From positions 39,151-103,150 of the forward strand of contig WVWN01000078.1 of the NCBI GenBank assembly GCA_011773985.1: a DNA stretch of 64,000 nucleotides, written 5' to 3'. Position 1 is the first letter of the stretch, and every line of letters begins with the position of its first letter. Shown here in pieces: positions 40,871 to 63,385 of the stretch. This DNA is from Candidatus Zixiibacteriota bacterium (lineage in GTDB: Bacteria > RBG-13-66-14 > B26-G2 > WVWN01). The notes under the pieces are model-generated. The model did not search any database. It saw only the letters and a list, made by a program, of their open reading frames with translations, and was not told the DNA's origin. The position numbers were made by a program, and so were the translations under genes.

Positions 40871-41132
40871 GGCTAGTACCTGTAGGGTAAATGTCCTAAC
40901 CACCTTTTAAACCTCCTCGTTTTTTCCCCTTACGTTGTATATTATAACGGTGTTTTTACCGTAACGCAAATTATCCACTCTAGCCATAGTGGTCGGCGGG
41001 CTTTTATTTTAATACCCCCTTAAGGCGTTTGTCGTTGATTTCGGCAGGAGATTTATATATACTAACCCCGTAAACGACTAATACGGCGCGCCTGCGCGCG
41101 CACGGAAGGTTTTATACGTTTCAGGAGGAACC

Positions 41133-42705: not shown

Positions 42706-44388
42706 ATGCGTACGATTAATATGATGTTGGTTATCCTTTTCGTCGGGGCGGCATATGCTGCGGCCCAGGAAGGGTCGGAGTTGGCCCGGCCGGCGGTGAC
42801 CTTTATACCTTTCGCGGACGATTCGCCTGTCGGGGAGGAACTCCCACCGCTCCCCGGTGCCCCGTTCGACGTAGAGGCGCCGATGCCGTGGCTCGCCGAC
42901 GGTATTCCCGGCCTATTGGAGCTCGCGCTTGAGCGCGGGGCCGCGGCAAATCTCGTGTCCCGGACGGACCTCGCGCTATCGCTCAAGAAGCGCCGCAACG
43001 TGGGACTCGCGGCGGATACGCCGTTCGAGGTTGTCGCGGAGGTTGCCGAGCGCGAAGGCGCGAGGTACGTCGTGGGCGGTTCTTTTACCAAGGAAAAAAA
43101 GGACCTCTCCTTAACGGTGAAGGTCTGGGAAATAGGCGCCGAAGTGGCGGCGGTCCCGGAGGTCGAGGGCCCGGAGGAATATAAGGCCGAGATGGACCGG
43201 CTCGAGGCGGAGCTGGAAAAAATGGTCGGGGAGCTGAGGGAAGTCGTGGGCGCCCCCGGCCTAAGCGCGGAGGAGAAAGAGGTCCGTGCGGCGGCGATCG
43301 AAGCCGAGTTGACGGAAAAGGCTTTACGCATGGCGGAACTTGCCAAAGAGCAGTTTAAAATCCGACCTCCGAAAACCATAGAGATAGATCCCAGGCTCGA
43401 GGAAGGATTCCATGCTCTCGTCGAGGAACTGGAGGTTGTTTTAGCGGATGCGGCGCTAAGCTGGGATGAGAAGGAAGCCCGCGCGGCGGAAATCCGCTTC
43501 GCGATGGACGAGATGGTTGGTCAGATAATGGAACGCTTGGCCGTTATCCCTAAAGGGGAGTACGAGGAATTTAGCGGCGGGACCGGCGATGTATTTTCTC
43601 TCGTGAACGAGGCGGCGAAGTTCGTACTCGAGGCGACGGGCGCGGGCGAAGAAGCGATTCTTATCCCGCGACCGCCGATTGCGAATATGGAGGCGTTCAA
43701 GTGGTTCGCCAAGGGCGCGGCCAGTCCCTATACCGGCGAACAGATCAGCTTTTTCTTAAGCGCGACGGAAAAGGACGCGAATTTCGCGGGGGCCCATTTG
43801 CGTTTGGCTAAAGCGTACCGCGGGGAGAAAAATTACGAAGACGCGAAAGCCTCGTACGAGAAAGTTCGTGAGTTGGCGGACTATTATCCGTCGGCCCCTT
43901 ACGGCTTGGCTTTAATATCGCGCGCGCTCGAGCCGGAGAACGCCGACGCGGCAGTAGCTTTGCTCGACGAGGCGCTGGCCATAGACCCTTCGTACGCGCC
44001 GGTATACGAAGCGCGGGGCGCCGTGTACTTCGCGGCCCAAGATTACGAGAAAGCGCGCGAGGCTTACGAGACGTTTATCGCGATCTGGCCTACGAGTAAA
44101 GACGGCTATTACGCGCTGGGAAACACGCTTTGGCTCATAGGTAAGGATAGCCCGCAGTGGAAATCCCTTCTCCGCGCCGCTATCCAATCCTACGAGAAAT
44201 CGTTGTCCGTAGACCCCGACTTCGCAGCCTGCCACTATAACCTGGCGTCGGTTTATAAAATCTTCGAAGACGTCGAGAAGGCTATTTACCACTACCGTCG
44301 TTACGTCGAGCTCGAGCCGGATTCCCCCCGGCGCGCCGAGATCGAGGAAACGATCGCCGATTGGGAGGAAAAGTACAGGTTGAAGTAA
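42706..44388 (+). CDS. secreted protein with C-terminal TPR repeats
   Basis: Signal peptide MRTINMMLVILFVGAAYAAAQ. C-terminal third is TPR (AHLRLAKAYRGEKNYEDA..., HYNLASVYKIFEDVEKA). 560 aa. Confidence 0.55.
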   Translation: MRTINMMLVILFVGAAYAAAQEGSELARPAVTFIPFADDSPVGEELPPLPGAPFDVEAPMPWLADGIPGLLELALERGAAANLVSRTDLALSLKKRRNVGLAADTPFEVVAEVAEREGARYVVGGSFTKEKKDLSLTVKVWEIGAEVAAVPEVEGPEEYKAEMDRLEAELEKMVGELREVVGAPGLSAEEKEVRAAAIEAELTEKALRMAELAKEQFKIRPPKTIEIDPRLEEGFHALVEELEVVLADAALSWDEKEARAAEIRFAMDEMVGQIMERLAVIPKGEYEEFSGGTGDVFSLVNEAAKFVLEATGAGEEAILIPRPPIANMEAFKWFAKGAASPYTGEQISFFLSATEKDANFAGAHLRLAKAYRGEKNYEDAKASYEKVRELADYYPSAPYGLALISRALEPENADAAVALLDEALAIDPSYAPVYEARGAVYFAAQDYEKAREAYETFIAIWPTSKDGYYALGNTLWLIGKDSPQWKSLLRAAIQSYEKSLSVDPDFAACHYNLASVYKIFEDVEKAIYHYRRYVELEPDSPRRAEIEETIADWEEKYRLK

Positions 44389-44459: not shown

Positions 44460-46379
44460 TCAGCGCACAAGGACTACGGTCCTCGTTGACGGGGGGGCGG
44501 TTTTGCCGACGCGAAGGCACGCGACGTATACGCCGCTCGCTACCGGCGCGCCCCCGGCGTCGGTTCCGTCCCACTCCGCGACGTATTTTCCGGGCGTTTT
44601 GGCCTCGTTGACGAGGTAGCGGATTAGTTTGCCCGATATATCGTAAACGGCGATCGAGGTCGCGGGCGCGTCGCCGTTAACGGGCGCCACTTCGTACGCG
44701 ATATTGACTTGGGTTACGAACGGGTTGGGGTAGCACCGGGTTATGGCACTCCTGGGTTTGGCCGCGCCGCCCACAGCCCGGACCGCTTTCGGGCCGTAGG
44801 TCCGGACGCGCCCCGAGGAAAGGCGCTCCTCGAGTTTGTAATAGTAGATCGTGCCGTCGTTTACCTTATCGTCGCGGTAGCTGTAGGAGGCCGTCGGTTG
44901 TTCTTCGACGTACGCTATTTCGTAATAGATGGTACTTCCGCTCACGTGATCCCTTATTCCTTTAAAGATAGCCCAGCCCGATCGCTCCGGGGTAGGTTCG
45001 GCTTTCCACCGGATAATAATGGCGCCGCCCTGTACGGCCAGGGTGAAAGGTTGGCGGTCGGCGGCCGGCGCCAGGTATTTACCCGTACGCCAGTGGTTGC
45101 CGCCGAACATGGGCCAGGGGTTGGCGGACGGCTCGTACGCCGCCTCGGTGCGGATCGCCTCGAGGCATCCATTTTGGGCGCCCACGACGACATCCAGGAA
45201 GCCGTCTTCGTCCACGTCCGTTGCCGCGGGCGTGGAGGTAATGCCGGTGCCCGACAGTTTGACGGGGAACCCGCCGGTCGGAGCCCCGTTTTTTTCATAG
45301 GATAAAAGCGTACCGTCGTACGTCACGAGTAATATTTCGGGGAGGCCGTCGCCGTCTGCGTCGACCATCAGGGGGGCCGCGGCTACGGTTTGCCTTAATT
45401 GTTTCGGGAAACCTGGCCTTGATATGCCATCGGCGTCGAAGACGCCGATCGTCGCCCCTTCGATATATCTGGCCCCGCCCACGAAAACCAACGCCAGTTT
45501 GCCCCGGCCGTCTACGTCGCCCACGGCCGCGGGAACGGTTATGGGTTTAGCCCCAAATGATTGCGGCCACCCCGGGCGGAAGGTGCCGTCGGCGTCGACT
45601 ACGTAAGCCAGGCCCGTGGTAGTACCCGCCAGGACCTCGGTTCGCCCGTCGCCGTCTACGTCGGCCAGTACGGGCGCCCCGGCGACCTGTCCGTCGAGCG
45701 CGACGGGCCAACCGGTGGCTTCCGCCCCCGACGTATTGAAGGCGTAAATTTTACGATCTGAGGCTACCACGACTTCCGGCTGTTGGTCGCCGTCGAGGTC
45801 GCCCACCGCGGGGAAGCCGTGTGAAGGCTCTTCGAGCGTAGCGGGCCAACCGCCGATGGCCGTTCCGTTACCGTGGAAGCCGTAGAGGGCGGCGCCAGCG
45901 GTGGCGAATACTTCCAGGCCGCGGTAGTTCGTAAAGTCCTGGACCGCGACCCCGCCCGAGCCCGCGGCGCCGAGTTCCTTCGGCCACCCCGGCACGGGTA
46001 TCCCGTCGTGGCCGAAGGCGTAAAGTTTGCCGTCGCCGGAGGCGAATAGCACCTCCAATTTTCTATCGCCGTCGAGGTCCGCGAGGGCGGGCGAGGAACA
46101 CTCGCCGTGCTGTGCGCCAGTCGAGGCGGGAAAGCCCGAAAGCGGCCTCCCGTTGGCGTCGAGCAAGTAGAGTTTTCCGTCCCAAGTGGCGATCGCGATT
46201 TCGCGACGGCCGTCGCCGTCAACGTCGGCGACCGCGGGCGACGAGTCGTGGCACGGGCCGACGTTGACGGGCCAGCCCTGGATGTATTGCGGCTCGGCGG
46301 CCGTGGCGAATGGCGCGGCGACCGCCAAGCCCACCGCGCTTAAAATTGTCATATTTGTTATATGTTTAGATCTTCCCAC
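44460..46379 (-). CDS. FG-GAP/VCBS repeat beta-propeller protein with a T9SS C-terminal sorting domain (Por_Secre_tail type)
   Basis: Signal peptide. At least 7 FG-GAP repeats (ADVDGDGRREIAIATWDGKLYLLDANG, GDLDGDQQPEVVVASDRKIYAF...). C-terminus CYPNPFVTQVNIAYEV...IAVYDISGKLIRYLVNE...GKYVAEWDGTDAGGAPVASGVYVACLRVG...VVLVR matches the T9SS CTD consensus. Confidence 0.75.
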   Translation of the reverse strand: MGRSKHITNMTILSAVGLAVAAPFATAAEPQYIQGWPVNVGPCHDSSPAVADVDGDGRREIAIATWDGKLYLLDANGRPLSGFPASTGAQHGECSSPALADLDGDRKLEVLFASGDGKLYAFGHDGIPVPGWPKELGAAGSGGVAVQDFTNYRGLEVFATAGAALYGFHGNGTAIGGWPATLEEPSHGFPAVGDLDGDQQPEVVVASDRKIYAFNTSGAEATGWPVALDGQVAGAPVLADVDGDGRTEVLAGTTTGLAYVVDADGTFRPGWPQSFGAKPITVPAAVGDVDGRGKLALVFVGGARYIEGATIGVFDADGISRPGFPKQLRQTVAAAPLMVDADGDGLPEILLVTYDGTLLSYEKNGAPTGGFPVKLSGTGITSTPAATDVDEDGFLDVVVGAQNGCLEAIRTEAAYEPSANPWPMFGGNHWRTGKYLAPAADRQPFTLAVQGGAIIIRWKAEPTPERSGWAIFKGIRDHVSGSTIYYEIAYVEEQPTASYSYRDDKVNDGTIYYYKLEERLSSGRVRTYGPKAVRAVGGAAKPRSAITRCYPNPFVTQVNIAYEVAPVNGDAPATSIAVYDISGKLIRYLVNEAKTPGKYVAEWDGTDAGGAPVASGVYVACLRVGKTAPPSTRTVVLVR

Positions 46380-46396
46380 GTATAAGCCAGATTATA

Positions 46397-47755
46397 CTAA
46401 AAGGACGCCTCGATTTCCAGCTTTAATTCGTTCGCGCGATGCTCCTCGAATTCCGTCGTGCGCAGGTCGTAGCTTGGGTCCCACAACCCCCGCGTATAAG
46501 TAATGTCTATTTTGACGCCTTCCTTCGGAGCGTAGGATAGGTGGGGGAGGGCCGCGACGCTCAAGGATTTGTTCTCCCGGACCCTGGTGACCGGGTCGTC
46601 GGGGACCCGGCGGCCGGGGTTGATGTAGCGGCCTCCTACGCCGAAGAACAGTTTTTCCGTAAAGAAAAATTCGGGCTCGCCGAAGAGGAGGAGGTAGTCG
46701 TTAGTGTCTACGTCGTCGCCGAACGTACTCTCGTAGTTGGCGCGCCACACTTCGTACAGGACGGCGCCGCGGAACCACAAGCGCGGCCCGATCAAACGTA
46801 AGCCGAAGTCGGGGTAAACCTGGAAGAGCATGCCGCCCGTAGGATTTCGCAAGCTTTCGTCGTCTGCGAACCGATGATACGCTACTACGCCGTAGAAGTC
46901 CATAATCGAGAATTCCCGGGAGGTTTCTACGCCCGCGTGTATCGAATCCCCAAGGTTGCCCAAAGTGCCTCGCGGTTCCGGCGCGAGCGTCTTCTCGCGC
47001 CAATATAAATTTCGCCAGAACTTGGGAAGCGCCGGCGCGTAGTGCGTATCCCACAACGATTTCAGGTCGTACTTCATCCCTTCCGACGCGAAGAATAACC
47101 CGAAACCGCCGGCCCGGCAGCTCGCCGCGGCTATGGCCTGGTGCTCGAGGCCGGCGCCAACGTCGAGCGAAGCGGTAACCGACCCGAATTCGCGGCCGGC
47201 GCGTATGCCGAAGGGGTCGAGGTAGGCCACGAAAGAAACCGGGTCGATGCGGTTGACGAGATTGTTGTAGTACCCGCCGTGGCCGTAGCGGATGTCGAAG
47301 CCGCCGAGCGTGACGTCGGTACCGCGCCAGAGGTCCTTCAATTCGACGTTCACTTGCTCGAGGGAGCCGTAGACATATTTGGTTTCCGCGTGTTCGGCTA
47401 GGTGATATACGCCTGCCTCGCTCTCAAAGAGCGCGTAGCGATAGAACTTCGACTGTTTTCGGTCGTCGAAGGTGAAGAGGAGGTTCGCGGCCACGTTGTC
47501 GTCGAAGGTCGCGCGTATGCCTACGTCGGCCTCGAGACGGAAGTCGTAAACGGGGTCGCCATCCCTAACGATAGTACTCGAGGGACTCTCGGTCGGAGGG
47601 GGCTCCGGCGTCAACTCCGGCCCTACGGAACCGTCTCCGAAGTCGTCCGTGATTGCGCCGTAGATGCGGCCGTATACGTCGACGTCTGCGGCGGAACCGG
47701 CCGTTGCGGCCGCGAGGATCAAAACCGCGGTGGTTGCGCTTCGAGCGTCCATCAT
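46397..47755 (-). CDS. predicted outer-membrane beta-barrel protein, hypothetical
   Basis: Signal peptide MMDARSATTAVLILAAATAGSAA. 452 aa of amphipathic beta-strands rich in Y/F/G/D, ending in ...LEIEASF (C-terminal Phe, beta-signal-like). Confidence 0.45.
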   Translation of the reverse strand: MMDARSATTAVLILAAATAGSAADVDVYGRIYGAITDDFGDGSVGPELTPEPPPTESPSSTIVRDGDPVYDFRLEADVGIRATFDDNVAANLLFTFDDRKQSKFYRYALFESEAGVYHLAEHAETKYVYGSLEQVNVELKDLWRGTDVTLGGFDIRYGHGGYYNNLVNRIDPVSFVAYLDPFGIRAGREFGSVTASLDVGAGLEHQAIAAASCRAGGFGLFFASEGMKYDLKSLWDTHYAPALPKFWRNLYWREKTLAPEPRGTLGNLGDSIHAGVETSREFSIMDFYGVVAYHRFADDESLRNPTGGMLFQVYPDFGLRLIGPRLWFRGAVLYEVWRANYESTFGDDVDTNDYLLLFGEPEFFFTEKLFFGVGGRYINPGRRVPDDPVTRVRENKSLSVAALPHLSYAPKEGVKIDITYTRGLWDPSYDLRTTEFEEHRANELKLEIEASF

Positions 47756-48354: not shown

Positions 48355-49650
48355 TCAGAAACAGGCGGTCACGAAAGCGTACGCCTTATCGTAAATTAAG
48401 TACTGCCCCCAGTCGCGGCTATCCAGGTCGACGCCCGAGGCCATTTTAAAAGCGTAGTTCTCGCCGAATTTGTATTCCAACGAAATTGGTATGCGGTTCT
48501 GCGTTTTTTCCCGGTCCAAAGTTTCGCGGGAGCCGGTATCGAGATTAATTTTTTCGATGTTTATAAATTCGCCCATGTAGCCGGTCTCGAGGTAGAGCTC
48601 GCGCCAAGTCCGGAGGCGCCAAAGGAGGTGATAGATCAATTCCGTTTTTTCGTAAAGATAACTTTCCCGCGGCTGATAGGTAAAGTTGAAGCGCCGGGTT
48701 TGGCGGCGGCGCTCGAGGCCGCCGCGGAAGCGGTGCCGTCCCGGCCGTTGGTAGTACGCGCCGCAGCCGTGGGAGCCGAGCGTCAGGCGTCCGTCGTAAT
48801 CTTCCTCCAGGGGAACCGCGCCCAGGGGCGGTTCCGTAAGTCGCCGTGTCTCTTCCCATTCGCTGGCCGCGCCGCGGTAGTACGCCTCCAGGTTAGCGGG
48901 CAGCTTCTTGATTAACGTAGCGGCGCCGTACCGTTCCGCGTAGCGCCGCGCCCAGTTGGGCCGTTGGCCGTAAAAATAGGTGTAGTATTTCGTCGACGGC
49001 GTTCTCCAAAAACCCTCGCCCGTGACGCTGAAACCGAGGGGGAAGGACCAGGCTGCGGCCACTTCGTAGCGCCGGGGGCTTTGCGCGAACATCTCTTCGT
49101 AACCCTCGTCGTACTTGGAACGTCTGAAGGAGTAGTTGTTGTCGAAGTCGATGGCCGTGTACCCGACTTCGAGGAAACGGTCGCGGCCGTAGTCGAATTT
49201 GACGGTTGCGCCGGCGTCGCTGTAACGCTTCCAGAACGTCGGCTGCGTACGCAAGCCCAACTTGAACCAACGCCAAAGGCGAAACTCGAGCTCGAATTCA
49301 TTTAGTTGACGCTCTTCCCACAACGGCTCGAGGCCGTCGTAGCGGTCGTAGCGGTAGAGGAAGCGAAACCAGTCCGTGAAGGGCGCGGCGAACTTGACGT
49401 CTTGGCTAAGGAACCATTGCCGTACGTTAAGGCTGCCCATGGCGAGGCGGACGCCGATGTCGTTTTCGGCCCAGACGCGCTCCCAATCGCGGTCGTACGA
49501 GAGCTGGACCAAGTCCATTGCGTATTCGGCGTCGAACTCCTCTTCGGTGTCGTACGGCCCCGGTATGTATAGGCCCGCGGCGGAACCGGCGCCGCAGGTT
49601 ACGGCAAGCGCCCCCGTCACGCATTTCAAGTATTTCGGTAATTCGGGCAT
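48355..49650 (-). CDS. predicted outer-membrane beta-barrel protein, hypothetical (second one)
   Basis: N-terminal signal-like segment. 431 aa, W/Y/F/R-rich amphipathic strands, C-terminal ...AYAFVTACF ending in Phe. Confidence 0.4.
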   Translation of the reverse strand: MPELPKYLKCVTGALAVTCGAGSAAGLYIPGPYDTEEEFDAEYAMDLVQLSYDRDWERVWAENDIGVRLAMGSLNVRQWFLSQDVKFAAPFTDWFRFLYRYDRYDGLEPLWEERQLNEFELEFRLWRWFKLGLRTQPTFWKRYSDAGATVKFDYGRDRFLEVGYTAIDFDNNYSFRRSKYDEGYEEMFAQSPRRYEVAAAWSFPLGFSVTGEGFWRTPSTKYYTYFYGQRPNWARRYAERYGAATLIKKLPANLEAYYRGAASEWEETRRLTEPPLGAVPLEEDYDGRLTLGSHGCGAYYQRPGRHRFRGGLERRRQTRRFNFTYQPRESYLYEKTELIYHLLWRLRTWRELYLETGYMGEFINIEKINLDTGSRETLDREKTQNRIPISLEYKFGENYAFKMASGVDLDSRDWGQYLIYDKAYAFVTACF

Positions 49651-53331: not shown

Positions 53332-53404
53332 GGGGCAGTAGCTCAGCTGGAAGAGCGCATCCCTCGCACGGATGAGGTCGTCGGTTCGAATCCGATCTGC
53401 TCCA
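53332..53404 (+). tRNA. tRNA-Ala (anticodon CGC)
   Basis: 73-nt cloverleaf: acceptor GGGGCAG/CTGCTCC with the G3:U70 Ala identity pair, D-arm GCTC-AGCTGGAA-GAGC, anticodon arm CATCC-CTCGCAC-GGATG (anticodon CGC, A37), T-arm GTCGG-TTCGAAT-CCGAT, discriminator A. CCA is not encoded. Confidence 0.85.
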
Positions 53405-53554: not shown

Positions 53555-54727
53555 TTAGGTTAATACCGCGCCCACCAGCCGGTGCAGCAGCGAGCGGCGC
53601 AGCTCGACGGCGTCGTAGGCGCAGGCCTCGTGGCAGCAGTAGCACCGGATGCAGAGCTTCTCGTCGACGTACGATTTGTCGTTTATAACGCTTATCGCGC
53701 CGACGGGGCAGCTCTCGCGGCACAGCGCGCAGCCGGTGCAGCGCTCGCGTCGCACGCGCGGCTGGACCGAGAGGCCGTCGCGAAGGAGGTTCGTCATAAA
53801 ACGTTGGAAGGGCCCGGCGTTCGCGAAGCCGCCTTCCTCGATAATCGTCGGCGGCCACTTCCAATCTTTAATTAAAAGAGTCTCGAGAGTCGGCCCGACG
53901 ACGTTCAAGTCTTCCGGACGATTGGGTTTTTCGTCTCGGCGCGCGGCCACCCGTACCACCGGGTGCCGTTCCGGCGCGAGGCCCGTTATCGCGCCCGCGG
54001 CGACGTCCAACGCGAGGGCGGAGGGGCTGGCCATTATAAGGCCCACCTTTCTCGCGTCGCCAAGGCCGGGGCCGTTGCCCTCCATTGCCAACACCGCCTC
54101 CATAACGTTGAGAACCGGTTTAACGAAGAAAGCGACGTCGAGGAGGACGTCGGCGAAGTTGTCCACCGTCCGCATCCGCGCGTGGTAACCGGGTTTGTCG
54201 AAACCCGGGAGGACGCCGAACAGGTTTTTGACCGCCCCGGTCAAAATAGTGAAGGCGTGGGTTTTGAGTTTACACAGATTAATTACCGCGTCCGCCTCGA
54301 GGACCGGCGTTATCACGTTAAACCTTTTCGCTACCCGCGCGTCCTCGACGCGTACCGTTTGCGACGACGTGTCGTAATTCAGCTCGAGGCCTACTTCGTC
54401 CGCGAGGTTGAGGTAGCCGGACCGGCGGTAACACTTCTCAAGGGTCCTTTTGGTATAGGGGAGGCCCGAGCCCGGGCTGTCGGCTAGGAGGGGAGTTGCG
54501 CCCGCGGCCCGGGTCGCTCGCGCCACGGCCTTGACGACCGAGGGATGAGTAGTCACGGTTTGTTCCGGCCGGGCGCCCCTGAGCAGGTTTACCTTGAGGA
54601 CGACGCGCCGGCCGGGTTCGAGTAGTTTGCGGAAGCCCCCGAGCTGGCGGAAGGCTTCCTCGAGCGCGACGGCGACGTCCGCGTCGTCGTACGAAGGGCA
54701 ACGTGCGATAACGACCTTATTGTTCAT
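53555..54727 (-). CDS. DUF362-domain protein with a C-terminal 2x[4Fe-4S] ferredoxin domain
   Basis: DUF362-like core (VVLKVNLL...THPSVVKAVA...). C-terminal CTGCALCRESCP and CIRCYCCHEAC. 390 aa. Confidence 0.6.
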   Translation of the reverse strand: MNNKVVIARCPSYDDADVAVALEEAFRQLGGFRKLLEPGRRVVLKVNLLRGARPEQTVTTHPSVVKAVARATRAAGATPLLADSPGSGLPYTKRTLEKCYRRSGYLNLADEVGLELNYDTSSQTVRVEDARVAKRFNVITPVLEADAVINLCKLKTHAFTILTGAVKNLFGVLPGFDKPGYHARMRTVDNFADVLLDVAFFVKPVLNVMEAVLAMEGNGPGLGDARKVGLIMASPSALALDVAAGAITGLAPERHPVVRVAARRDEKPNRPEDLNVVGPTLETLLIKDWKWPPTIIEEGGFANAGPFQRFMTNLLRDGLSVQPRVRRERCTGCALCRESCPVGAISVINDKSYVDEKLCIRCYCCHEACAYDAVELRRSLLHRLVGAVLT

Positions 54728-55280
54728 CGCCCGCGGGTTTTACTATTTCGTCAAATCGGAGGGAGGCGAGAGAGGCACGCGGCCGCGCCGCCGGATCTTC
54801 CGCGGGATAACCCAGCGTCATCAGGCATACCAGGGCGTAGCCGTCGGGGACCGACAGCACGGCGCGGACCGCCTCCTCGTCGTAGTTGTTTATCCAGCAA
54901 GTCCCGAGGCCTTCGGCGGTGGCGGCGAGCGTGACATAGGCTGCGGCGATGGCGACATTGTAACGAACGTACATGTCCCAGGTCCAACTGCCGCGGGTCC
55001 GCGCGTCTGGCGCGGGCGCGCCCTCGAACGCGAGGTAACCGAGGAAAGCGAGGGTAACCGGTGCCTGGGCTATGAAGTGGTTGTGGGGTGCCGCGGCCGC
55101 GGCCAATGCCCGCCGGCGGCTGCCGTCGCGGACGACGACGAAGCGCCAGGGTTGGCGGTTGTGCCCCGAGGGAGCGAGCCGTCCCGCGTTTAGGATCCGT
55201 TGCAGGGCGTCTTCGGGTACTGTATCTGGGCGGTATTTCCGAACAGAACGGCGCCCGGTAATCGCGTCGTAAACGTCCAC
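54717..55280 (-). CDS. nitroreductase family protein
   Basis: ITGRRSVRKYRPDTVPEDALQRILNAGRLAPSGHNRQPW is the nitroreductase FMN-binding N-terminus. 187 aa. Confidence 0.7.
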   Translation of the reverse strand: MDVYDAITGRRSVRKYRPDTVPEDALQRILNAGRLAPSGHNRQPWRFVVVRDGSRRRALAAAAAPHNHFIAQAPVTLAFLGYLAFEGAPAPDARTRGSWTWDMYVRYNVAIAAAYVTLAATAEGLGTCWINNYDEEAVRAVLSVPDGYALVCLMTLGYPAEDPAARPRASLASLRFDEIVKPAGDEQ

Positions 55281-55449
55281 GGTGGGTTTACCTCGTTTAT
55301 TTTTCGCTATTATAGGGTTAAAATGGCCTTAAGTAAAGGCCGCGGGCCGTTAAGATTTAGCTTGATATTTTTCGTACGATAATATATAAAGAAGGTAGTT
55401 GGCGTCACGCCCTCGACATTCGCAGGGGTTAAGATAAGGAGGTATCACG

Positions 55450-56100
55450 ATGAGAAACGTGCTGATGTTGTTGTCGGCGCTCGTCATAACCGCGGCGGCG
55501 GTCGCGGTCGCGACGGGGAACGAACACGAGGTAGGCGGCCCGCCTGCTAAGGGGCACAAAATCCCATTCTGGTCGGAGAAGCCGGCGATGCGATTTCAAT
55601 GTATGTGGCTACAATCTGAGATAGGCGAAAAGGGTCGCGTCGTCAAGATCGAGTTCAGTTTTAAACAGTACGTGGGGACGCCGCCGTCCACGTTTACGGG
55701 CTGCAAGATACGCTTGTGCCATACCACGGTCAATAAAATCGCGGCCAATTTTAAAAGTAATTACGGCGGAAAGTCGCCGGTCGAAGTCTTCAGCGGCAAG
55801 TTTGTGGTACCCGCGGGCCTTAAGGAGAACGACTGGGTCATGGTGGTTGCGCCGAAGGCTTTCACTTTCAACAATACGAACAATTTGTTGATGGAGGTGG
55901 TCTGGACCGGCGCGAGCGGTGCCGCGGAGGACCGCTTCTGGATAGCAGATGCGGACCAACCCGGACGGGTTAGGGCGTTCAGCGCTACGGCCGTAACCGG
56001 TACGGTTTTGGCGAACCAGGGCCAGGTGGCCAGGATCACGATCGGTAGCCCGGCGGTCGAGCCTAATAGTCTGGGCAGGGTCAGGGCTCTTTTCAGATAA
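55450..56100 (+). CDS. secreted protein of the SLG[RK]V[KR]ALF C-terminal-tail family (intact member)
   Basis: Signal peptide MRNVLMLLSALVITAAAVAVATG. Beta-rich body. C-terminus ...AVEPNSLGRVRALFR. Followed by a strong terminator. Confidence 0.55.
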   Translation: MRNVLMLLSALVITAAAVAVATGNEHEVGGPPAKGHKIPFWSEKPAMRFQCMWLQSEIGEKGRVVKIEFSFKQYVGTPPSTFTGCKIRLCHTTVNKIAANFKSNYGGKSPVEVFSGKFVVPAGLKENDWVMVVAPKAFTFNNTNNLLMEVVWTGASGAAEDRFWIADADQPGRVRAFSATAVTGTVLANQGQVARITIGSPAVEPNSLGRVRALFR

Positions 56101-56123
56101 TGACGCGCCCTAAGAAACTCAAA

Positions 56124-56158
56124 ACGCCCCTCGGCCGAGGGGCGTTTTCCGTTTTATT
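56124..56158 (+). terminator. rho-independent terminator
   Basis: ACGCCCCTCGGCCGAGGGGCGT perfect hairpin followed by TTTCCGTTTTATTT. Confidence 0.7.
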
Positions 56159-56195
56159 TCACGGCCGAGCGGTTACCTTCGCCTTGGGTTCGGTT

Positions 56196-57165
56196 TTACC
56201 GTCGGCCCGAGTTCGGTCGACGTCCCCGGCCCAATAATAGGCGCCCGCGCCGTTCGCGCGGGCCTGCGGCTATGAGGCCCCACGCTAGGCTGACGGGAAC
56301 GAGGGTCATACCGGCGAAAGGTGAATAATGGGTTAAGCCGCCGAAACGCCGGATGACGGCGCTAAAACGGCTCACGAGGTCCGAGATTGGCCAACCCGCT
56401 TCCGGCGGGTTCCGTACGTAAGGTACTGCCACCGCGCTCACCTGGACGGCAGTGCCGAATTCGACTAAGTTCCAAATTAACCACGGCGCCGCCAGTACTA
56501 CGCCCGTTATAACGAACGGTGCGAAGAGTCGTATTTTGCGTCGCCGGTATAAATAGTAGAAGGCTACTATGCCGACGGCGAGCGTATAGTAGATCGTGTC
56601 GCTCCGCGCGAGATTCGTTAAAGCACGTAGAGCTCCCAGCAGCGCGATATCGCCGAGACGCCAACGGTCCTGTTCTAATACGCGAGTGAGTTGCCAGGTC
56701 ACGAGTGCGACCAGCGTTAGGCCCAAGGCTACCTCGAGGCCGCACACGGCGCGCGCGATGACCGTGGGCGCGGCGGCGTAACAAGCCGCGCCGAGTAACG
56801 CGCCGCCCCGCGAGTCCGAAAGTAAAAGGCCGACGCGATAGATAATATGGGTGGTTACCACGTCGAGCAGACCGTTAGATATTATGACTATCCTTATCGG
56901 AAGGTCGGGGTCCACCCCTTTGAGCCAGAACACCGGCGTAGTCAGGTACGCCTATAACGGGTGGAAGCCGTTGGTCAGGTTAATTCCGTCCAACGTAGGG
57001 CCGAGGCCGGGGCCTATGTTCGTCGCGATCTGGAAATAGTAATACGAATCGTCGGGGATAATATGTTGGATGAGGATTTTTTAGGACAGGAACGCGACCG
57101 CTAGGCGAGGCAGCGCGCCTAAAGCCAAAATCGCGGTTAAGACGGCTTTGCCGGATTTCGTTCCC
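56196..57165 (-). pseudogene. membrane glycosyltransferase-like gene (DDSYYY...NGFHPL motif) interrupted by three in-frame stop codons
   Basis: One continuous minus-strand frame reads ...KAVLTAILALGALPRLAVAFLS-TAA-KILIQHIIPDDSYYYFQIATNIGPGLGPTLDGINLTNGFHPL-TAG-AYLTTPVFWLKGVD..., continuing as listed ORF 56196..56933 (multi-transmembrane). A further in-frame TAG lies upstream at about 57164. Confidence 0.5.
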
Positions 57166-57244
57166 TGGTTCGTCTAGCCGGCCCAGGGCGCGGTCCCAGG
57201 TTCCGGTGCCGCTCTCGGCGCGGGCGAACCCGCCGTTAACCGGC

Positions 57245-57775
57245 CTAAAACGCCACCAAGTCCTGGAACCATTCTTTTCCCCGGACCGAGGCGAAATCGG
57301 CGTCAGTCGCGGCTTTCGGTTTGGCTTTGGGGTCGAGCTCGAGCGCGCGGCGGAGATGCGCCTCGCACTCTTTTTCGTTACCTTCCAACGCCCAGTAGCA
57401 GGCGAAATTGTAGTGGGTCAAGTGCTCCTCGGGCGCGAGTTCGACACCGCGTCGGTGATTTTCGAGCGCCTCCCCGGAGCGGCCCGCGCGGTGGAGGGCC
57501 GAGCCTTTCGCGGTGTAGGCCAACGCGAAGTCAGGTTTTTTTCTTATGACCTCTTCGCAGACGGCGACGGCTTCCTCGGCGCGGCCGAGCATCGTTAGGG
57601 CGTTCGCCTTCGCGGTATGAATGCGCGGGTATTCTGGGTCCGCGGCGATGGCCTCCTCAAAAGCAGCCAAGGCTTCTTCGAAACGGTTGGCGTTGAATAG
57701 TTGGCGGCCGCGCTGGAAGTGGACCTGGGCGCGAAGGTGGGCCGTGTCTTTGGGTTTTTCCGCTTCCCCTTTCAT
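57245..57775 (-). CDS. small TPR-like protein (tandem paralog 1)
   Basis: Likely start MKGEAEKPKD at ATG 57775 (ATGA overlap with the upstream paralog's stop). TPR-like repeats. Shared motif YNFACYWALEGNEKECEAHLRRALELDP...WFQDLVAF. Confidence 0.5.
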   Translation of the reverse strand: MKGEAEKPKDTAHLRAQVHFQRGRQLFNANRFEEALAAFEEAIAADPEYPRIHTAKANALTMLGRAEEAVAVCEEVIRKKPDFALAYTAKGSALHRAGRSGEALENHRRGVELAPEEHLTHYNFACYWALEGNEKECEAHLRRALELDPKAKPKAATDADFASVRGKEWFQDLVAF

Positions 57776-58305
57776 TTGAGAGCCACCAATTTTTGGAACC
57801 ACGGTTTTTCGCGAAAGGGAACGAAGTCCTCGTCGACGGTGGCCGTGGCCTTGGATTGAGGGTCGAGCTCGAGCGCGCGGCTTAGGTATCGGCGGCACTT
57901 CTCTTCGTCGCCCTCGACGGCCCAGAAGCAGGCGAAGTTATAGTAGATGCGCGGTTCGTCCGGCGAGAGAGCGATCGCCCGGCCGAAGTCGGCTTCGGCC
58001 TCCGCCCGCCGTCCCAGGTCTTGAAATATCGAGGCGCGGGCCGCGTAGGCGAGCCCGGCATGCGCGTCGCCCGCGATGGCGCGCGCCGCGGAGGCTAAGG
58101 CTTCGTTGGGGCGTCCTAGCCGTTTCAACGCGTACGCGCGAGCGATTTCCGCACGTAGGAAACTCTCGTCTTGGCGGAGGGATTCGTCGAATGCGGCGAG
58201 CGCTTCGGCGAACTTGCGGTTTCGGAAGAGCGCCCGGCCGCGTTCGAAATGCACTTCGGCGCGGAAGCGTTTTAGCTCCTCCCGTTCGGCGTTAGAACGT
58301 CCCAA
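57772..58305 (-). CDS. small TPR-like protein (tandem paralog 2)
   Basis: 177 aa. Same architecture and motifs as 57245..57775 (YYNFACFWAVEGDEEKCRRYLSRALELDP...WFQKLVALK). Confidence 0.5.
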   Translation of the reverse strand: MGRSNAEREELKRFRAEVHFERGRALFRNRKFAEALAAFDESLRQDESFLRAEIARAYALKRLGRPNEALASAARAIAGDAHAGLAYAARASIFQDLGRRAEAEADFGRAIALSPDEPRIYYNFACFWAVEGDEEKCRRYLSRALELDPQSKATATVDEDFVPFREKPWFQKLVALK

Positions 58306-58948
58306 GCGCCTCCCTTTCGCCCGATGGTAAGGTCACTACGCTGGGATGTTTACGTACTTAACCGCGGCGGCTCCGGCCGTGTTAACGTCATTCGCACCCG
58401 GCGCCCAGTTCGCGCTATGACGGCACGTCCCACCACGGGCCCGGTCCGAAGGGGACTTCGGCGTCGTGTCCGGACGTTTGGCCGGGTCGGCGGCAAGGGC
58501 ACCGGCGAGATTCCGGGCGACGATGACGCCGTCCTCGGACTGCGCGGCTAAGGCGCCGCACGCCGCGTCGCCCGTCTTGCCCCGGAGCGGGCCCGCTTCG
58601 GCCGAGATTTTTGTGAATTGGTGGGCTATTTCGCCGACCGCCTGTTGCAGCTCGTCGCGGGCCGAATTTCCCGCCGAGTTTTTTAAAGGTAGCCGTTAAT
58701 ATTTTCCGTAACTGCGAACGGGTCGGCGCGGTAGCCCACGGCCGGGCTGACCGCGGGCGGCCCTTTAGGGCCGCCGTCAGCGACTATCGCGGTATAGGCA
58801 CAAAGCCCTAATAGCGCAAGAGGAGCGCATTGGACGGCCGTCGCGCCGCCGCGTAACCCTTGATCATATCTTATAATAACCTATAATTTGCCGCGTTCGC
58901 AACTAAAAAGGCGAACTCTATCCGGGTTCTTGTTTTCGCGGATAATTT

Positions 58949-59962
58949 TTGTTAGCATTAATTTTGAGTTTCGGATGGCCTACTTTGAAGGTTTTGGTGA
59001 CAGGGGCAAACGGTTTTATCGGCAGCCATCTCGTCGAGGCGCTTCTCGAGCGGGGCGATGAGGTACGCTGTCTATTACGACCGACGAGTAACCGCCGTTG
59101 GCTCGAGGGCCTGGATTACGAAGAGGTCGCAGGGGCCCTCGACGATGGGGGGTCTTTGGCCCGCGCCGTGGCGGGCGTGGACGTGGTCTATCATAGCGCG
59201 GGCGTGACCAAGGCGCGCAAGGCCGATATGTTATACAGGGTCAACGCGGAAGGGACCGCGAACCTTGCGGACGCCTGCCTCGGGCGGGAGACGCCGCCGC
59301 TCTTCGTATACGTCTCAAGCCAGGCCGCCGCGGGCCCCTGTCGCGCGGGGGACGCGCTTCGCGAAACGGAGGCGTGCGACCCCGTTAGCCATTACGGCCG
59401 AAGCAAACTCGAGGGCGAGCGCGCTTTGGGAAAACGCGCCGCCCAGATACCTTTCGTGATCCTTCGGCCTTCGGCCATCTACGGCCCGCGCGATACGGAG
59501 ATGTATTTGTTTTTCAAATTTATAAAAAGAGGTATCGAGCCGACGTTAGGGTGGGACGAGCGGTACGTGAGCCTTTGCTACATAAGCGACCTGGTGGACG
59601 CGTTGCTCCTGGCGGGCCGAGTGGAGAAGGCCCGGGGCGAAGTATACTTCATAGCTCACGACGAGGTATGGGATTGGCGCGGGATATCGAGGCAGGCCGC
59701 GGCGGCTTTGGGGGTTAGAACCTTCCCGGTCCGCATACCCAAGGTGGTACTCTTCGGCGCGGCGACGGTGGCGGAACTGGCCGCGACGTTGTCGGGGAAG
59801 GTTGCCACCCTTAACCGCGAGCGTGCCCGCATTATGTGCGAGGAGCTCTGGGTGTGCGACGTAAGCAAGGCGAGAGACGAGTTAAATTTTGCGCCCCGCG
59901 TGGGATTCGCCGAGGGCGCGAAGTTGACGACGGCGTGGTACCGCGAACAAGGGTGGTTGTGA
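58949..59962 (+). CDS. NAD-dependent epimerase/dehydratase (SDR) family protein; candidate ceramide/3-ketosphinganine reductase (CerR-like)
   Basis: KVLVTGANGFIGSHLVEAL Rossmann motif. Extended-SDR layout, about 325 aa. Start uncertain: TTG at 58949, TTG at 58985 (giving LKVLVTG) or GTG at 58997. Ends 4 nt before the spt-like gene. Confidence 0.6.
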   Translation: MLALILSFGWPTLKVLVTGANGFIGSHLVEALLERGDEVRCLLRPTSNRRWLEGLDYEEVAGALDDGGSLARAVAGVDVVYHSAGVTKARKADMLYRVNAEGTANLADACLGRETPPLFVYVSSQAAAGPCRAGDALRETEACDPVSHYGRSKLEGERALGKRAAQIPFVILRPSAIYGPRDTEMYLFFKFIKRGIEPTLGWDERYVSLCYISDLVDALLLAGRVEKARGEVYFIAHDEVWDWRGISRQAAAALGVRTFPVRIPKVVLFGAATVAELAATLSGKVATLNRERARIMCEELWVCDVSKARDELNFAPRVGFAEGAKLTTAWYREQGWL

Positions 59963-59966
59963 GAAT

Positions 59967-61190
59967 ATGACCGAGTTACGATCTGGTCGGCCCGATATTT
60001 TCGAGAAGTGCGAGAAATTTACGGCGGCGAAAGCCGCGATGGCCGCCGGGGTCTATCCTTACTTTCACGTCATCGAGTCGGGGCAGGACCCCGAGGTTAT
60101 GGTCGAGGGGCGCCGGATGATCATGGTGGGGTCGAACAATTATCTGGGTTTGACCTCCCACCCCAAGCTTAAAGAGGCGGCGATCAAAGCGACGCAGGAG
60201 TTCGGCGTCGGTTGCGTTGGCTCGAGGTTCTTGAACGGTACGCTCACCGTACATATCGAGCTGGAGCGCCGGCTAGCGAAGTTCTGTCGTAAGGAAGCGG
60301 CGCTCGTCTTTTCCACCGGTATGCAAACGAACTTGGGCGCGATATCCGCCTTGGCCGGTAAACGCGACGTCATCGTGACCGACAAGTACGACCACGCCAG
60401 CATCATCGACGGTTGCCGGTTGAGCTTCGGCCATATGAAGCGTTTCCGCCATAACGACATGCACGACCTGGAGCGCGTTCTCCAGTCCCCCGCCGACGGC
60501 GGCGGCGCCATTATCGCCGTGGACGGCGTTTTCAGCATGGAGGGCGACGTTTGCAATTTGCCCGCCATCGTCGAGCTGGCGAAGAAGTACGGGGCCCGCG
60601 TCCTGGTAGACGACGCCCACGGCATCGGCGTACTCGGCTCGCGCGGCGCGGGCGTAGCCGACCATTTCGGCCTTGAGGATGCCGTAGACATAATCATCGG
60701 CACGTTCAGCAAGTCCTTCGCCTGCGTCGGCGGCTTCGTCGCTTCCTCCGAGACCGTGTGTCACTATCTCAAACATTTCGCGCGTTCGATGATATTCTCC
60801 GCCAGCCTGCCGCCGGCCAACGTGGCCTCCGTCACCGCGGCGCTGGACATCATCGAGAACGAGCCCGAGCGGCGCGAGCGCCTGAAAGAGGTAGCCGAGA
60901 AGATGCGCCGCGGCCTGCAGGGCCTCGGCTACGATACCGGCGAGAGCACGACGCCCATTATCCCGGTCATCGTAGGCGACGACCTCACGGCGCGGACGAT
61001 GTGGCGGAAGCTCTTCGACGCCGGGATATTCACGACGCCCATAATGACGCCCGCGGTCCCGGAGAACCGCGCGCTCATCCGCCTTAGTTGTATGGCGACC
61101 CATACCGACGAGCACGTCGAGAGGGTTGTCGAGGCGTTCGAGAAGGCCGGCCGCGAGATGGGCATCATCGGGGGGTGGTCCCTGGCGTGA
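59967..61190 (+). CDS. serine palmitoyltransferase-like alpha-oxoamine synthase (PLP-dependent)
   Basis: GSNNYLGL, HASIIDG, and PLP-lysine motif GTFSKSFACVGGF (the Spt-type GTFSKS, distinct from BioF GTLSKA and Kbl GTLGKA). 407 aa. Confidence 0.75.
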   Translation: MTELRSGRPDIFEKCEKFTAAKAAMAAGVYPYFHVIESGQDPEVMVEGRRMIMVGSNNYLGLTSHPKLKEAAIKATQEFGVGCVGSRFLNGTLTVHIELERRLAKFCRKEAALVFSTGMQTNLGAISALAGKRDVIVTDKYDHASIIDGCRLSFGHMKRFRHNDMHDLERVLQSPADGGGAIIAVDGVFSMEGDVCNLPAIVELAKKYGARVLVDDAHGIGVLGSRGAGVADHFGLEDAVDIIIGTFSKSFACVGGFVASSETVCHYLKHFARSMIFSASLPPANVASVTAALDIIENEPERRERLKEVAEKMRRGLQGLGYDTGESTTPIIPVIVGDDLTARTMWRKLFDAGIFTTPIMTPAVPENRALIRLSCMATHTDEHVERVVEAFEKAGREMGIIGGWSLA

Positions 61191-62299
61191 TCACGGTCGA
61201 CGAGGTTACGTCGAAAAGGGCCCTGGCGGATTTTGTAGATTTCCCGTACCGTTTATATCGCGACGACGCCAATTGGGTCCCGCCGCTCAAGCGCGACGTG
61301 CGGTTTACCTTCGGCCGCCGGAATCCGTTCTGGCACCACGCCGAGCGGGCGCTTTTTATCGCCCGGCGGGAAGGCGGCGTCGTGGGTCGCGTGGCCGCGA
61401 TAAAGGACTACGAGTACGTAGAATTCGCGGGCGAGCCGTGCGGTTACTTCGGCTTCTTCGAGGCCGAGAACGACGGGGACGTCGCGGCCGCGCTCTGGGA
61501 TGCCGCGGGGGCCTGGCTCCGTTCCAAAGAATTAACGGCCATGCGTGGCCCGATGAACCCGTCGACCAACGAGGAGTGCGCGTTCCTGGTGGAGGGGTTC
61601 GACCGGCCCCCCTTCATTATGATGACCCACAACCCGCCGTACTACGCGGCGCTCGCGGAGGGGTACGGCTTTCGGAAGGCGCGGGACTTGTTTGCGTTTT
61701 TGGCGTCGGTATCGCCCGCGCGGCTCGAGCGCCTCGAGCGCCTCGCGGCCCGCACGCAGGCGCGCAACCCCGGCCTCGCCGTCCGCCACGTCAACGTCGC
61801 CGATTTCGCGCGCGAGGTCCAGCTCGTCCGCGAGATTTACAATCGGGCCTGGGAGGACAACTGGGGCTTCGTGCCGGCGACGCGTGAGGAGTTCGAGAGT
61901 ACGGCGAAGCGGCTCAAGTCGCTCGTAGTCCCGGAGCTGGTTCCCATAGTTACGGTCGACGGCGACCCTGCGGGTTTCATCTTTACGGTCCCCAATTACA
62001 ACGAGGTCCTGATAAAGATGGGCGGGAGCTTGGGTCCGGTGAGCCTCTTCAAATTCTTAAAGGGTAAGCGCAAGATAAGGAGCTGCCGTCTTATGTTGTT
62101 CGGCATCTGCCCGGAGTACCGCAAGCGCGGCGTCGACGCGGTGCTCATAACGTCAAACCTCCGGGCCACGCTCGCGTTGGGCTACGAGAAAGCCGAATGC
62201 TCGTGGGTGCTCGAGGACAACGAGCTCACGAAGCGCGCCGCGGCGATGATGGGTGCGCGGCCGTACAAGAGGTATAGGATTTACGAGAAGAAGATTTAG
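61186..62299 (+). CDS. GNAT-fold N-acyltransferase, candidate bacterial ceramide synthase (bCerS-like)
   Basis: Likely GTG start at 61186 inside the GTGA that overlaps the spt-like stop. About 370 aa. C-terminal GNAT acyl-CoA motif LFGICPEYRKRGVDAVL. The six-frame ORF starts 33 codons upstream with R-rich out-of-context residues. Confidence 0.5.
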
Positions 62300-62352
62300 C
62301 CTCGGCAGGGCGGTTTCGCCGGATAGGAGACGGCGGCCGGGGGCCGCCGATT

Positions 62353-63327
62353 TTATTCTAAACCGTACTCGCCGAATTTTCGTTTCCAAAACTCCGCCCA
62401 CTCCTCTACGATTTCCCATTCAATAGGCAACCGGTAATCGTCTATATTCGCGTCTACTTCGTCGCGCGTCACGATATCTTCCGGATAAATTATACCGGAC
62501 CGCCAGTACATCGGGACTATTATATTTCTGCGGCCGTCAGTGAATTCGTAGCCTTGCTTTTTCGAGCAAAATATGAACCCTACGTACTCGAAGTCGTCAG
62601 ACCCCTCGTTATTGGACGCTACGTGTACCCCCGTAGGCCCCGAGAACTCGCAAGGCCCCGGCCCCTTGCGGCCGAACTTCCCTAAAAAACTCCCGGCCCG
62701 CGTAAAATATTGGACGTCGCACCTCATATAGTCTATGACGTAGACGTTTCCGCTCGGCGCGGTTGCGACGCCTTCCGGGAACCTGAATTGGCCGTCGCCG
62801 CCGCCGTACGTTCCCCATTTATTGAGAAAGCTGCCGTCCTTCGAGAATCGCTGGATACGATAATTAAAAGAATCGGCTACGTAAACGCCGTAATCGGGCG
62901 ATATTGCGATACTGAACGGATATTTGAACTCGCCGTCGCCGGCCCCACTCTTTCCCCATTTCCCCAAAAACGAGCCGTCGGCCGTAAAGTACTGTACGCG
63001 GTTATTCACCTTTTCGGTGACGTATATCGTCGAGTCGGGCCCGGCGGCAATTCCTACCGGCTCGTTGAACTGGCCGTCGCCGCTCCCCAGCGTGCCCCAC
63101 TGGCCTAAGTATTCGCCGGTCAACGCAAAGTACTGGACGCGGTTATTCCCCCAGTCCACTACGTAAACCCTGCCGTTCGGCGCCACGGTAACATCGTAAG
63201 GACCTTCGAATTGGCCGTTACCCGGCCCCCGCGTTCCCCACTTATACCAATAAACGTACGTATCACCGTACGCGGCGGAGAAAACAAAAACCCCCACGCC
63301 GGCCCACCGGGCCAACCTGGGTAGCAT
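62353..63327 (-). CDS. secreted NHL-repeat beta-propeller protein
   Basis: Signal peptide MLPRLARWAGVGVFVFSAAYG (start at internal ATG 63327). Five or more NHL repeats with a recurring NNRVQYF / NYRIQRF motif. Unknown about 90-aa C-terminal domain. Confidence 0.65.
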   Translation of the reverse strand: MLPRLARWAGVGVFVFSAAYGDTYVYWYKWGTRGPGNGQFEGPYDVTVAPNGRVYVVDWGNNRVQYFALTGEYLGQWGTLGSGDGQFNEPVGIAAGPDSTIYVTEKVNNRVQYFTADGSFLGKWGKSGAGDGEFKYPFSIAISPDYGVYVADSFNYRIQRFSKDGSFLNKWGTYGGGDGQFRFPEGVATAPSGNVYVIDYMRCDVQYFTRAGSFLGKFGRKGPGPCEFSGPTGVHVASNNEGSDDFEYVGFIFCSKKQGYEFTDGRRNIIVPMYWRSGIIYPEDIVTRDEVDANIDDYRLPIEWEIVEEWAEFWKRKFGEYGLE

Positions 63328-63385
63328 ACTGGTGCGCCGGCGGCTCGAGCCGCCGCGGCCTTCGCTCCCTTTACCCCTTTTCACA

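Follow-up and report, generated by a model that had tools for sequence, protein, structure and literature searches.

Three proteins encoded in a 64-kb window of a Candidatus Zixiibacteriota genome (contig WVWN01000078.1, positions 39,151 to 103,150; "the window" is this whole stretch of 64,000 nucleotides) have unrelated bodies and end in the same 15-residue peptide, [AG]-V-x-P-[TA]-S-L-G-[RK]-[VI]-[KR]-A-L-[FY]-x-COOH. Judged from sequence, this tail is probably a C-terminal tag, specific to its lineage and free of any transmembrane segment, by which proteins are sorted or anchored. The motif is held strictly one residue before the stop codon, it is spread over unrelated exported proteins, the peptide is under selection and more conserved than the bodies, it is predicted to be disordered, and related proteins exchange it for other anchors. 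All of this supports the first-pass annotation of the window, in which an undescribed sorting or recognition tag on unrelated secreted proteins had been proposed; its function, which comprises the sorting or anchoring itself, a possible cleavage and the molecule that reads the tail, we infer.

Three copies of the tail in the window

The carriers are P_A, a 216-aa exported jelly-roll protein (55450-56100, + strand; NCBI GTN49_11335, hypothetical protein); P_B, an Omp28-like thioredoxin-fold protein (14204-14947, +); and P_C, a repeat or propeller-type protein (40169-40909, − strand). Their tails were mapped to positions 56053-56097 (+; AVEPNSLGRVRALFR, stop codon at 56098-56100), 14900-14944 (+; SVSPSSLGRVKALFN) and 40172-40216 (−; AVTPASLGKVKALFE), each followed directly by a stop codon. 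The conserved unit was defined from an alignment of 24 P_A homologues, and one form of the tail peptide is PAVEPTSLGRVKALFR. A tail of 9-10 residues had been described at first, which is too short, since the unit covers about 15 residues and begins at [AG]-V-x-P.

When all six frames of the window were scanned, the core G[RK][VIL][KR][AS][LM][FY] appeared at three places only, each one residue before a stop, so that tails are present at all three of the protein ends where they had been reported. The degenerate DNA pattern including the stop codon gave three matches, against 0.00 expected from 100 dinucleotide-preserving shuffles. With signal peptides and tails removed, the three bodies show no similarity (best BLASTP E 0.63 in a three-sequence database); with the tails left on, these are the only significant BLASTP matches. 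The proteins are thus not homologous outside the tail, and simple full-length homology does not account for it. The tails differ from each other at 16-21 of 45 nucleotides and at 5 of 15 amino acids, which bears out the earlier observation that the DNA has diverged while the peptide was kept. No hydrophobic segment follows the motif in any of the three.

The description of all three as signal-peptide proteins with unrelated bodies was correct for the bodies but not for the limits of the open reading frames (ORFs), as only the ORF at 55450 contains its signal peptide in frame as annotated. In P_A the signal peptide occupies 55450-55512 and the folded body extends to about residue 200; a fold search against the PDB returned only weak jelly-roll or PHR-like matches. 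In P_B a typical signal peptide (MKKVFLIAMAVLAASSWA, about 14204-14260) precedes an in-frame TGA, and the ORF at 14387-14947 is the downstream part. The P_C frame is broken about three times (frames 0, 2, 1, 0), the ORF at 40169-40540 being the last fragment; a signal-peptide-like start near 40909 and the N-terminal repeats lie in other frames, and tblastn with intact relatives matches frames 2 and 3. P_C is therefore either a pseudogene or the product of assembly indels. The PMT_2 glycosyltransferase gene 3′ of P_A (56196-58305, −) is also split, into three ORFs. Given these two broken genes, this metagenome-assembled genome (MAG) may contain pseudogenes or indel errors.

Distribution of the tail

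Three tandem copies of the tail were made into a profile and compared with 5.8 billion proteins. Words of the query recur in more than 8000 candidates, and 106 matched with E ≤ 10; among these listed matches, more than 100 carry the motif one residue before the C-terminus, and the sequences upstream of it differ visibly ("NHRIQYF" in NHL proteins, "SPCRGAGEGGKDMGAK" in beta-helix proteins, "YRNLMLRVVV", "ATNYIYRY"). In addition, one genome per GTDB species was scanned with the degenerate DNA pattern that includes the stop codon, which returned at least 103 stretches, a figure that bounds neither the range of the tail nor its number per genome. Among the matches listed, these stretches come from nine MAGs, namely the closed chromosome of Candidatus Coatesbacteria bin961, two labelled "Zixiibacteriota" and six that are unclassified. 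Because the BamA proteins of three of them are 65-79% identical, the nine form one clade whatever their labels. By our own estimate, not by shuffling, only a handful of chance matches is expected for the whole collection.

A relaxed motif that does not require a stop codon occurs 223 times in the 769 kb collected, which stem from about ten related MAGs, and 220 of these occurrences lie one residue before a stop; 86 of the 220 had not been pre-selected by the stop-containing scan pattern. Further occurrences hence run into the hundreds, are strictly C-terminal and sit on at least 15 unrelated body families (single-linkage clusters) with different Pfam folds. These include NHL propellers, DUF6923-like propellers of the P_C type, the P_A jelly-roll, right-handed beta-helices, Omp28/thioredoxin, YCF48-BNR and Vgb-lyase-like proteins, along with several families without a Pfam match. 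NHL and other propellers are the largest family, with more than half of the carriers, often in tandem arrays. Carriers are 85-372 aa long (median 254) and are named by NCBI "hypothetical protein" or after the body fold only. Their enrichment in signal peptides was also seen: by our heuristic, 173 of 194 locus-complete carriers have a signal-peptide-like N-terminus, 18 of them only when a conserved in-frame TGA is read through. On the Coatesbacteria bin961 chromosome (CP070633.1), at least 40 carriers lie in 15 blocks of 8 kb (120 kb), a few further blocks being left out of this count. A propeller gene with the tail was also observed on a 44-kb contig classed as viral (L001; IMG/VR UViG_3300032046_000059, 5894-5941); the gene may belong to a prophage or be carried by a phage, or the contig may be misclassified.

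Selection on the peptide and predicted structure

Nearly all of the tail DNAs are unique (215/219). Identity between tail codons is 0.76 at positions 1 and 2 and 0.46 at position 3, Ser-10 (residues are numbered from the C-terminus) is encoded by both TCN and AGY codons, and Arg and Leu each use both of their codon families. Since the codons vary freely, selection must act on the peptide. In both the P_A and the P_B family, 98-100% of equal-length windows of the body are less conserved than the tail, and between homologues of less than 45% identity the tails are 70-75% identical, against 34-36% for the bodies. Over more than 200 paralogues, Gly-8 is invariant and Val-14, Pro-12 and Ser-10 are nearly so, which argues for recognition by a specific protein. 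Phe or Tyr occupies position −2 in 213 of 215 tails, while the last residue varies, most often among charged or polar ones (R, K, N, E).

The AlphaFold2 model of P_A is a confident beta-sandwich (pLDDT, the per-residue confidence score, 94-98) that ends near residue 200, with the tail below pLDDT 50 and a weak helix at residues 207-215. For the P_B family the mean pLDDT is 78, with core blocks at 88-96; here the body reaches to about residue 170, and the model shows the tail as coil at pLDDT 28-38. As both bodies end before these low-confidence tails, the tail should belong to neither fold; it is predicted to be a disordered appendage on two unrelated bodies. A short amphipathic helix had been suggested in the first-pass annotation, and this was not supported. 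The helical hydrophobic moment of the tail (0.45) is equalled by 44% of shuffles, whereas the strand moment (0.72) is equalled by 12.5%; a beta-strand describes the alternation of residues better, with V/A/F on one side and R/K/R on the other.

Exchange with other anchors

The P_A-family profile collected 1489 representatives. The P_A domain with the tail makes a protein of about 210-218 aa; the same domain is also found with a type A C-terminal domain (CTD) of the type IX secretion system (T9SS), in proteins of 271-330 aa, of which P0262, P0282, P0298 and P0302 score above the TIGR04183 cutoff (P0262, P0282 and P0298, which served as positive controls, at 29-36 bits). Elsewhere the domain occurs as three tandem copies without the tail and inside giant membrane proteins. 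The homologue search with P_B returned same-lineage relatives only, all of them truncated at the TGA and all with the tail, and so holds no information on anchor exchange.

The tail and the classical CTD coexist in the same genomes. In the window, a 639-aa FG-GAP protein (44460-46379, −) ends in a type A, FlgD_ig-like CTD (about 44463-44732); its TIGR04183 score of 24.5 bits (cutoff 23) confirms the T9SS domain that had been assigned to it. Several TIGR04183-type proteins of 551-649 aa are likewise encoded in the tail-bearing MAGs. The window also encodes an NHL-repeat paralogue with a signal-peptide-like N-terminus and no tail (62353-63384, −).

Lipoprotein-type signal peptides were called in 8 of 15 complete tail-less paralogues in the loci but in only 6 of 172 tail carriers (Fisher p=5e-7). 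In one such paralogue, an NHL lipoprotein of locus L024 (− strand, ending near 3788 in reverse-complement coordinates), the protein stops at a TAG after "...QYFKRRD", and an intact AVAPASLGRVKALFR with its own stop codon continues immediately and in frame; in this gene, which bears a lipobox, a nonsense codon seems to have put the tail out of use. This choice of anchor, in which the tail is replaced by a T9SS CTD or a lipoprotein signal, is our main argument that the tail serves to localise or anchor a protein rather than to fold or degrade it.

Comparison with known C-terminal signals

Isolated tails and the ends of the three window proteins matched no model of Pfam or NCBIfam (June 2026), even at E ≤ 10; this includes the T9SS models TIGR04183, TIGR04131, PF18962 and PF13860 as well as PEP-CTERM and the other CTERM models. 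Our literature searches with the motif strings, and for Coatesbacteria or Zixibacteria with C-terminal sorting, found no description of the tail. It shares the logic of C-terminal protein-sorting signals and none of their defining architectures, and it is undescribed in the literature searched.

The closest comparison is with the T9SS CTD (type A, TIGR04183 / PF18962, FlgD_ig-type; type B, TIGR04131). Cargo of this system needs SprA/PorV for its export, and PorU cleaves off the CTD. Like the tail, the CTD stands at the extreme C-terminus of Sec-exported proteins in bacteria of the FCB (Fibrobacterota-Chlorobiota-Bacteroidota) type, it serves many unrelated cargo families in the same genomes, and the P_A-type domain bears either of the two; genes of the PorV family adjoin some tail genes. 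The Sec signal peptide of T9SS cargo is also found on the tail carriers, at the frequency given above. However, the CTD is a seven-stranded beta-sandwich of 70-100 aa that the translocon recognises as a folded shape (PMC10994853), while the tail has 15 residues, is predicted to be disordered, adds no beta-sandwich domain in the P_A and P_B models and matches no CTD model. The cargo differs too, with carriers of 85-372 aa against 551-649 aa for four complete CTD proteins from tail-lineage loci and the window (the L075 ORF was trimmed to its signal peptide for this range). The earlier distinction from a T9SS domain was therefore upheld.

LPXTG, PEP-CTERM, GlyGly-CTERM, PGF-CTERM and MYXO-CTERM signals resemble the tail in their short C-terminal signature motif, their restricted lineage range and their dozens of copies per genome on unrelated exported proteins. 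The V-x-P-[TA]-S-L of the tail also recalls the V-P-E-P-[ST]-[ST]-L of PEP-CTERM. In the tail, however, no transmembrane helix is present, only about seven residues (R-V-K-A-L-F-x) separate S-L-G from the stop, and the basic residues (−7, −5 and often −1) are interleaved with hydrophobic ones, with no run of Arg. Having no transmembrane helix and apparently no Arg cluster, the tail lacks the tripartite architecture that defines LPXTG, PEP-CTERM, GlyGly-CTERM and MYXO-CTERM (bioRxiv 10.1101/2023.06.07.544157), and, missing the helix, it has no means of staying in the inner membrane for an intramembrane sortase to act on. The claim that it is not a PEP-CTERM or LPXTG motif is correct in the light of this and of the missing CTERM match.

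The C-terminal signal of the beta-barrel assembly machinery (BAM) has a similar strand-like alternation and an aromatic residue near the end. In the tail this residue stands at −2, with a polar or basic residue after it, whereas BamA and proteins resembling outer-membrane proteins of the lineage end in F-COOH (...FGHSF, ...FGHAF, ...EIEASF); as the carriers are moreover soluble domains, the tail is not a BAM beta-signal, in agreement with the first reading of the sequence. Lipoprotein anchoring by signal peptidase II, the apparent alternative in tail-less paralogues of the same families, uses an N-terminal lipid anchor and unrelated chemistry. Amphipathic-helix anchors of the PBP5 or MinD type differ in that the helical moment of the tail is ordinary among shuffles and its residue identities are strictly conserved. 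As analogies of working only, the eukaryotic pairs PTS1/PEX5 and EEVD/TPR (tetratricopeptide repeat) also rely on a very short signal at the free C-terminus of folded, unrelated proteins that is read by a receptor, and a TPR domain is fused to the PorV-like candidate described below; these belong to another kingdom and compartment and have no sequence relation to the tail.

Candidate readers of the tail

At loci L004 (826-3221), L005 (1831-4078) and L006 (5035-7267), as well as at five metagenome loci (L107-L111), an NHL gene with the tail is followed by two genes on the same strand. The first encodes a stand-alone FlgD_ig/T9SS-CTD-like protein of about 120 aa; the second (L004, 1443-3218) encodes about 590 aa, with a match to the PorV/PorQ family (E 5e-19, below the cutoff) in the N-terminal half and TPRs in the C-terminal half (about 280 aa). 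To our knowledge, the architecture of this pair has not been described. At L034, three tail genes are followed by a 366-aa paralogue that shares the TPR end. A metagenome scan for relatives of the PorV-TPR protein returned five close relatives only, and phmmer found no further PorV-like genes in the loci.

A second context was found in a lineage of 39% GC. Here a P_A homologue with the variant tail ...IEPTSLGNIRTLFH lies 82 nt 3′ of the genes for a PorU-type sortase and PorV2, in the same orientation, within an apparent operon (L112/L113, 3353-10645) of a GT4 glycosyltransferase, a PorU2-type sortase (1429 aa), PorV2 (320 aa) and the P_A homologue. The sortase scores 407 bits with NF033707 (cutoff 420; PorU2 N-terminal model), and PorV2 scores 112 bits with PorV_fam (cutoff 90). 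From these gene contexts a PorV/PorQ-related reader is plausible as a lead only, and we regard it as possible rather than likely. A 17-member family of DUF2723/GT-C-like neighbours was also considered as machinery and rejected, as it arose from the single-linkage chaining of TPR proteins.

Possible function of the tail and alternatives

Acting as a sorting or anchoring tag, the tail would be used as follows. Carriers would cross the inner membrane by way of their N-terminal Sec signal peptide, fold in the periplasm and then expose the flexible 15 residues, which a dedicated receptor or processing enzyme of the envelope would read. As the tail keeps a constant distance of one residue to the stop codon, the free carboxyl end is probably read along with it. 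Carriers would in this way reach the outer membrane or cell surface, or be kept there, the same role that the T9SS CTD or N-terminal lipidation would have on related proteins. The likeliest reader would be an outer-membrane protein of the PorV/PorQ family or its partners, that is, a T9SS-related route of attachment. In the most specific version, which seems to us rather doubtful, folded periplasmic proteins would end in a PTS1-like peptide that a PorV/PorQ-family outer-membrane barrel captures, the barrel being fused to a periplasmic TPR domain in some genomes and paired with PorU2/PorV2 in others, and the carriers would be transported to, or tethered at, the surface. This would be an unknown envelope-sorting route, a domain-free miniature alternative to the T9SS CTD for, by extrapolation, more than 100 small proteins per genome, including several secreted selenoprotein families.

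Several points weigh against this interpretation. The T9SS translocon identifies its folded seven-stranded CTD by shape (PMC10994853), and a 15-mer cannot imitate this. Beside the tail genes of the loci, no gene for machinery recurred consistently; PorU2 and PorV2 adjoin the P_A homologue in one orthologous context only, and two contexts of P_A homologues with a CTD had no PorU or PorV neighbour. The PorV-TPR loci are 72-92% identical to one another, so that their synteny may be inherited rather than functional. Finally, the signal-peptide and lipobox calls come from our own crude heuristics, and the genome scan bounds neither range nor copy number.

Four other explanations were weighed against sorting or anchoring by a dedicated reader. 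The tail could instead be an in-plane membrane anchor, a short cationic amphipathic helix lying on a membrane leaflet or on lipopolysaccharide with no receptor of its own, as in the C-terminal anchors of PBP5/6 and the membrane-targeting sequence of MinD. The residues L, V, L and F together with R/K, the helix at 207-215 of the P_A model and the near-exclusivity with lipoprotein signals would all fit such an anchor; but that helix is below pLDDT 50, the P_B tail is modelled as coil, and the helical moment is reached by nearly half of the shuffles and is surpassed by the strand moment. Membrane-targeting helices conserve a pattern rather than exact residues, whereas the tail is stricter, keeping Gly-8, Val-14, Pro-12 and Ser-10, which add nothing to amphipathicity; ten residues would also be very short for a monomeric anchor. 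We consider this explanation unlikely. That the tail marks carriers for maturation or turnover by a periplasmic C-terminal peptidase or PDZ protein (Prc/CtpA/DegS-type) is quite unlikely. The fixed distance to the carboxyl end and the hydrophobic and aromatic residues nearby resemble PDZ ligands, and the conserved P-[TA]-S-L-G could be a cleavage site, but the last residue is variable and mostly charged or polar, unlike that of classical PDZ ligands. It would be hard to see why more than 100 stable-looking proteins per genome, structural or enzymatic, should bear a degron, and a tail that is exchanged for T9SS CTDs and lipoprotein signals speaks for localisation.

In the tail V, A and F take turns with R, K and R, much like an amphipathic beta-strand, and an aromatic residue comes close to the end; both would suit a BAM/Omp85-type signal that targets carriers to the outer-membrane insertion machinery. 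This explanation is already disfavoured, and we hold it to be very improbable: the BamA and outer-membrane-like proteins of the lineage have their aromatic residue at the very last position and not at −2, and propellers, beta-helices and thioredoxin folds are soluble and not barrels. That the tail is no signal at all, but family conservation or a translated DNA-level repeat (a terminator, recombination site or mobile cassette), could be thought of because propellers make up over half of the carriers and often lie in tandem; it is refuted by the 15 or more unrelated body clusters and the unrelated bodies of the three window proteins, by the nearly always unique tail DNAs with free synonymous change, including that between the two serine codon families, and by a reading frame and stop offset kept in 220 of 223 cases, and its probability is negligible.

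Probable selenoprotein families among the carriers

The in-frame TGA of P_B (14303-14305, +) lies inside GWTG-U-GSCP, a UxxC redox motif, and is a probable selenocysteine codon. P_B matches the NCBIfam model NF045500 (Omp28_seleno) with E 1e-12, below the family cutoff, and its Pfam Omp28 match extends to residue 239 of 255. Gene calls start 3′ of the TGA in all 56 homologue clusters, and NCBI annotates just the 186-aa downstream part. Because the signal peptide lies upstream of the TGA, the gene probably encodes an exported selenoprotein. The RNA fold 3′ of this TGA is no more stable than shuffles (z −0.15) and Rfam gave only a tRNA, so that a SECIS (selenocysteine insertion sequence) element was not demonstrated; this tRNA-Ala(CGC) (53332-53404, +) is the sole Rfam or ARAGORN match in the window.

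Conserved in-frame TGA codons next to a Cys were also observed in two further groups of carriers. In the beta-helix family (L010, L021, L026, L079) the TGA stands in NYMYFCPG-U-GGG(T/S)W, and in a P_A-like family (L011, L028, L030, L032, L047, L064, L066, L093, L102) it is found in PF.GC-U-G or CGT-U-G, about 25-30 residues after the signal peptide. These two may be new exported selenoprotein families. As a true stop after tails, TGA is under-used (25/220).

Genes around the carriers

P_A orthologues down to 53% identity share their neighbours (54717-63000 in the window; L114, L115). The set includes a nitroreductase, a DUF362 Fe-S protein, PMT_2 (GT-C) glycosyltransferases, an NAD-epimerase/dehydratase, an aminotransferase and an acetyltransferase, and it looks like an amino-sugar or glycan-modification cluster. 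PMT_2, though conserved beside P_A orthologues, was rejected as a reader of the tail, since it concerns the P_A body family only and not the tail generally. Next to the FG-GAP protein with the T9SS CTD, two outer-membrane-like proteins of 452 and 431 aa end in F-COOH (46397-47755 and 48355-49650, both −); they match no Pfam or NCBIfam family, and the same arrangement is found in L115. A radical SAM/SPASM-domain protein (41133-42563, +) adjoins P_C and a 560-aa TPR protein (42706-44388).

Significance

C-terminal sorting signals such as LPXTG, PEP-CTERM and the T9SS CTD have each led to a dedicated envelope machine. The bacterial ones that we know of all consist either of a tripartite signal that includes a membrane helix or of an entire folded domain. 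With only 15 residues and no transmembrane segment, a tag such as this one would suggest that recognition follows another principle in a little-known candidate phylum. From the three carriers in the 64-kb window, more than 100 per genome can be extrapolated, and the tail would at once help to predict which proteins of these organisms belong to the surface or envelope. With it, the cognate receptor could be searched for by phylogenetic profiling and a systematic mis-annotation could be corrected, many carriers probably being selenoproteins that gene callers truncate at UGA.

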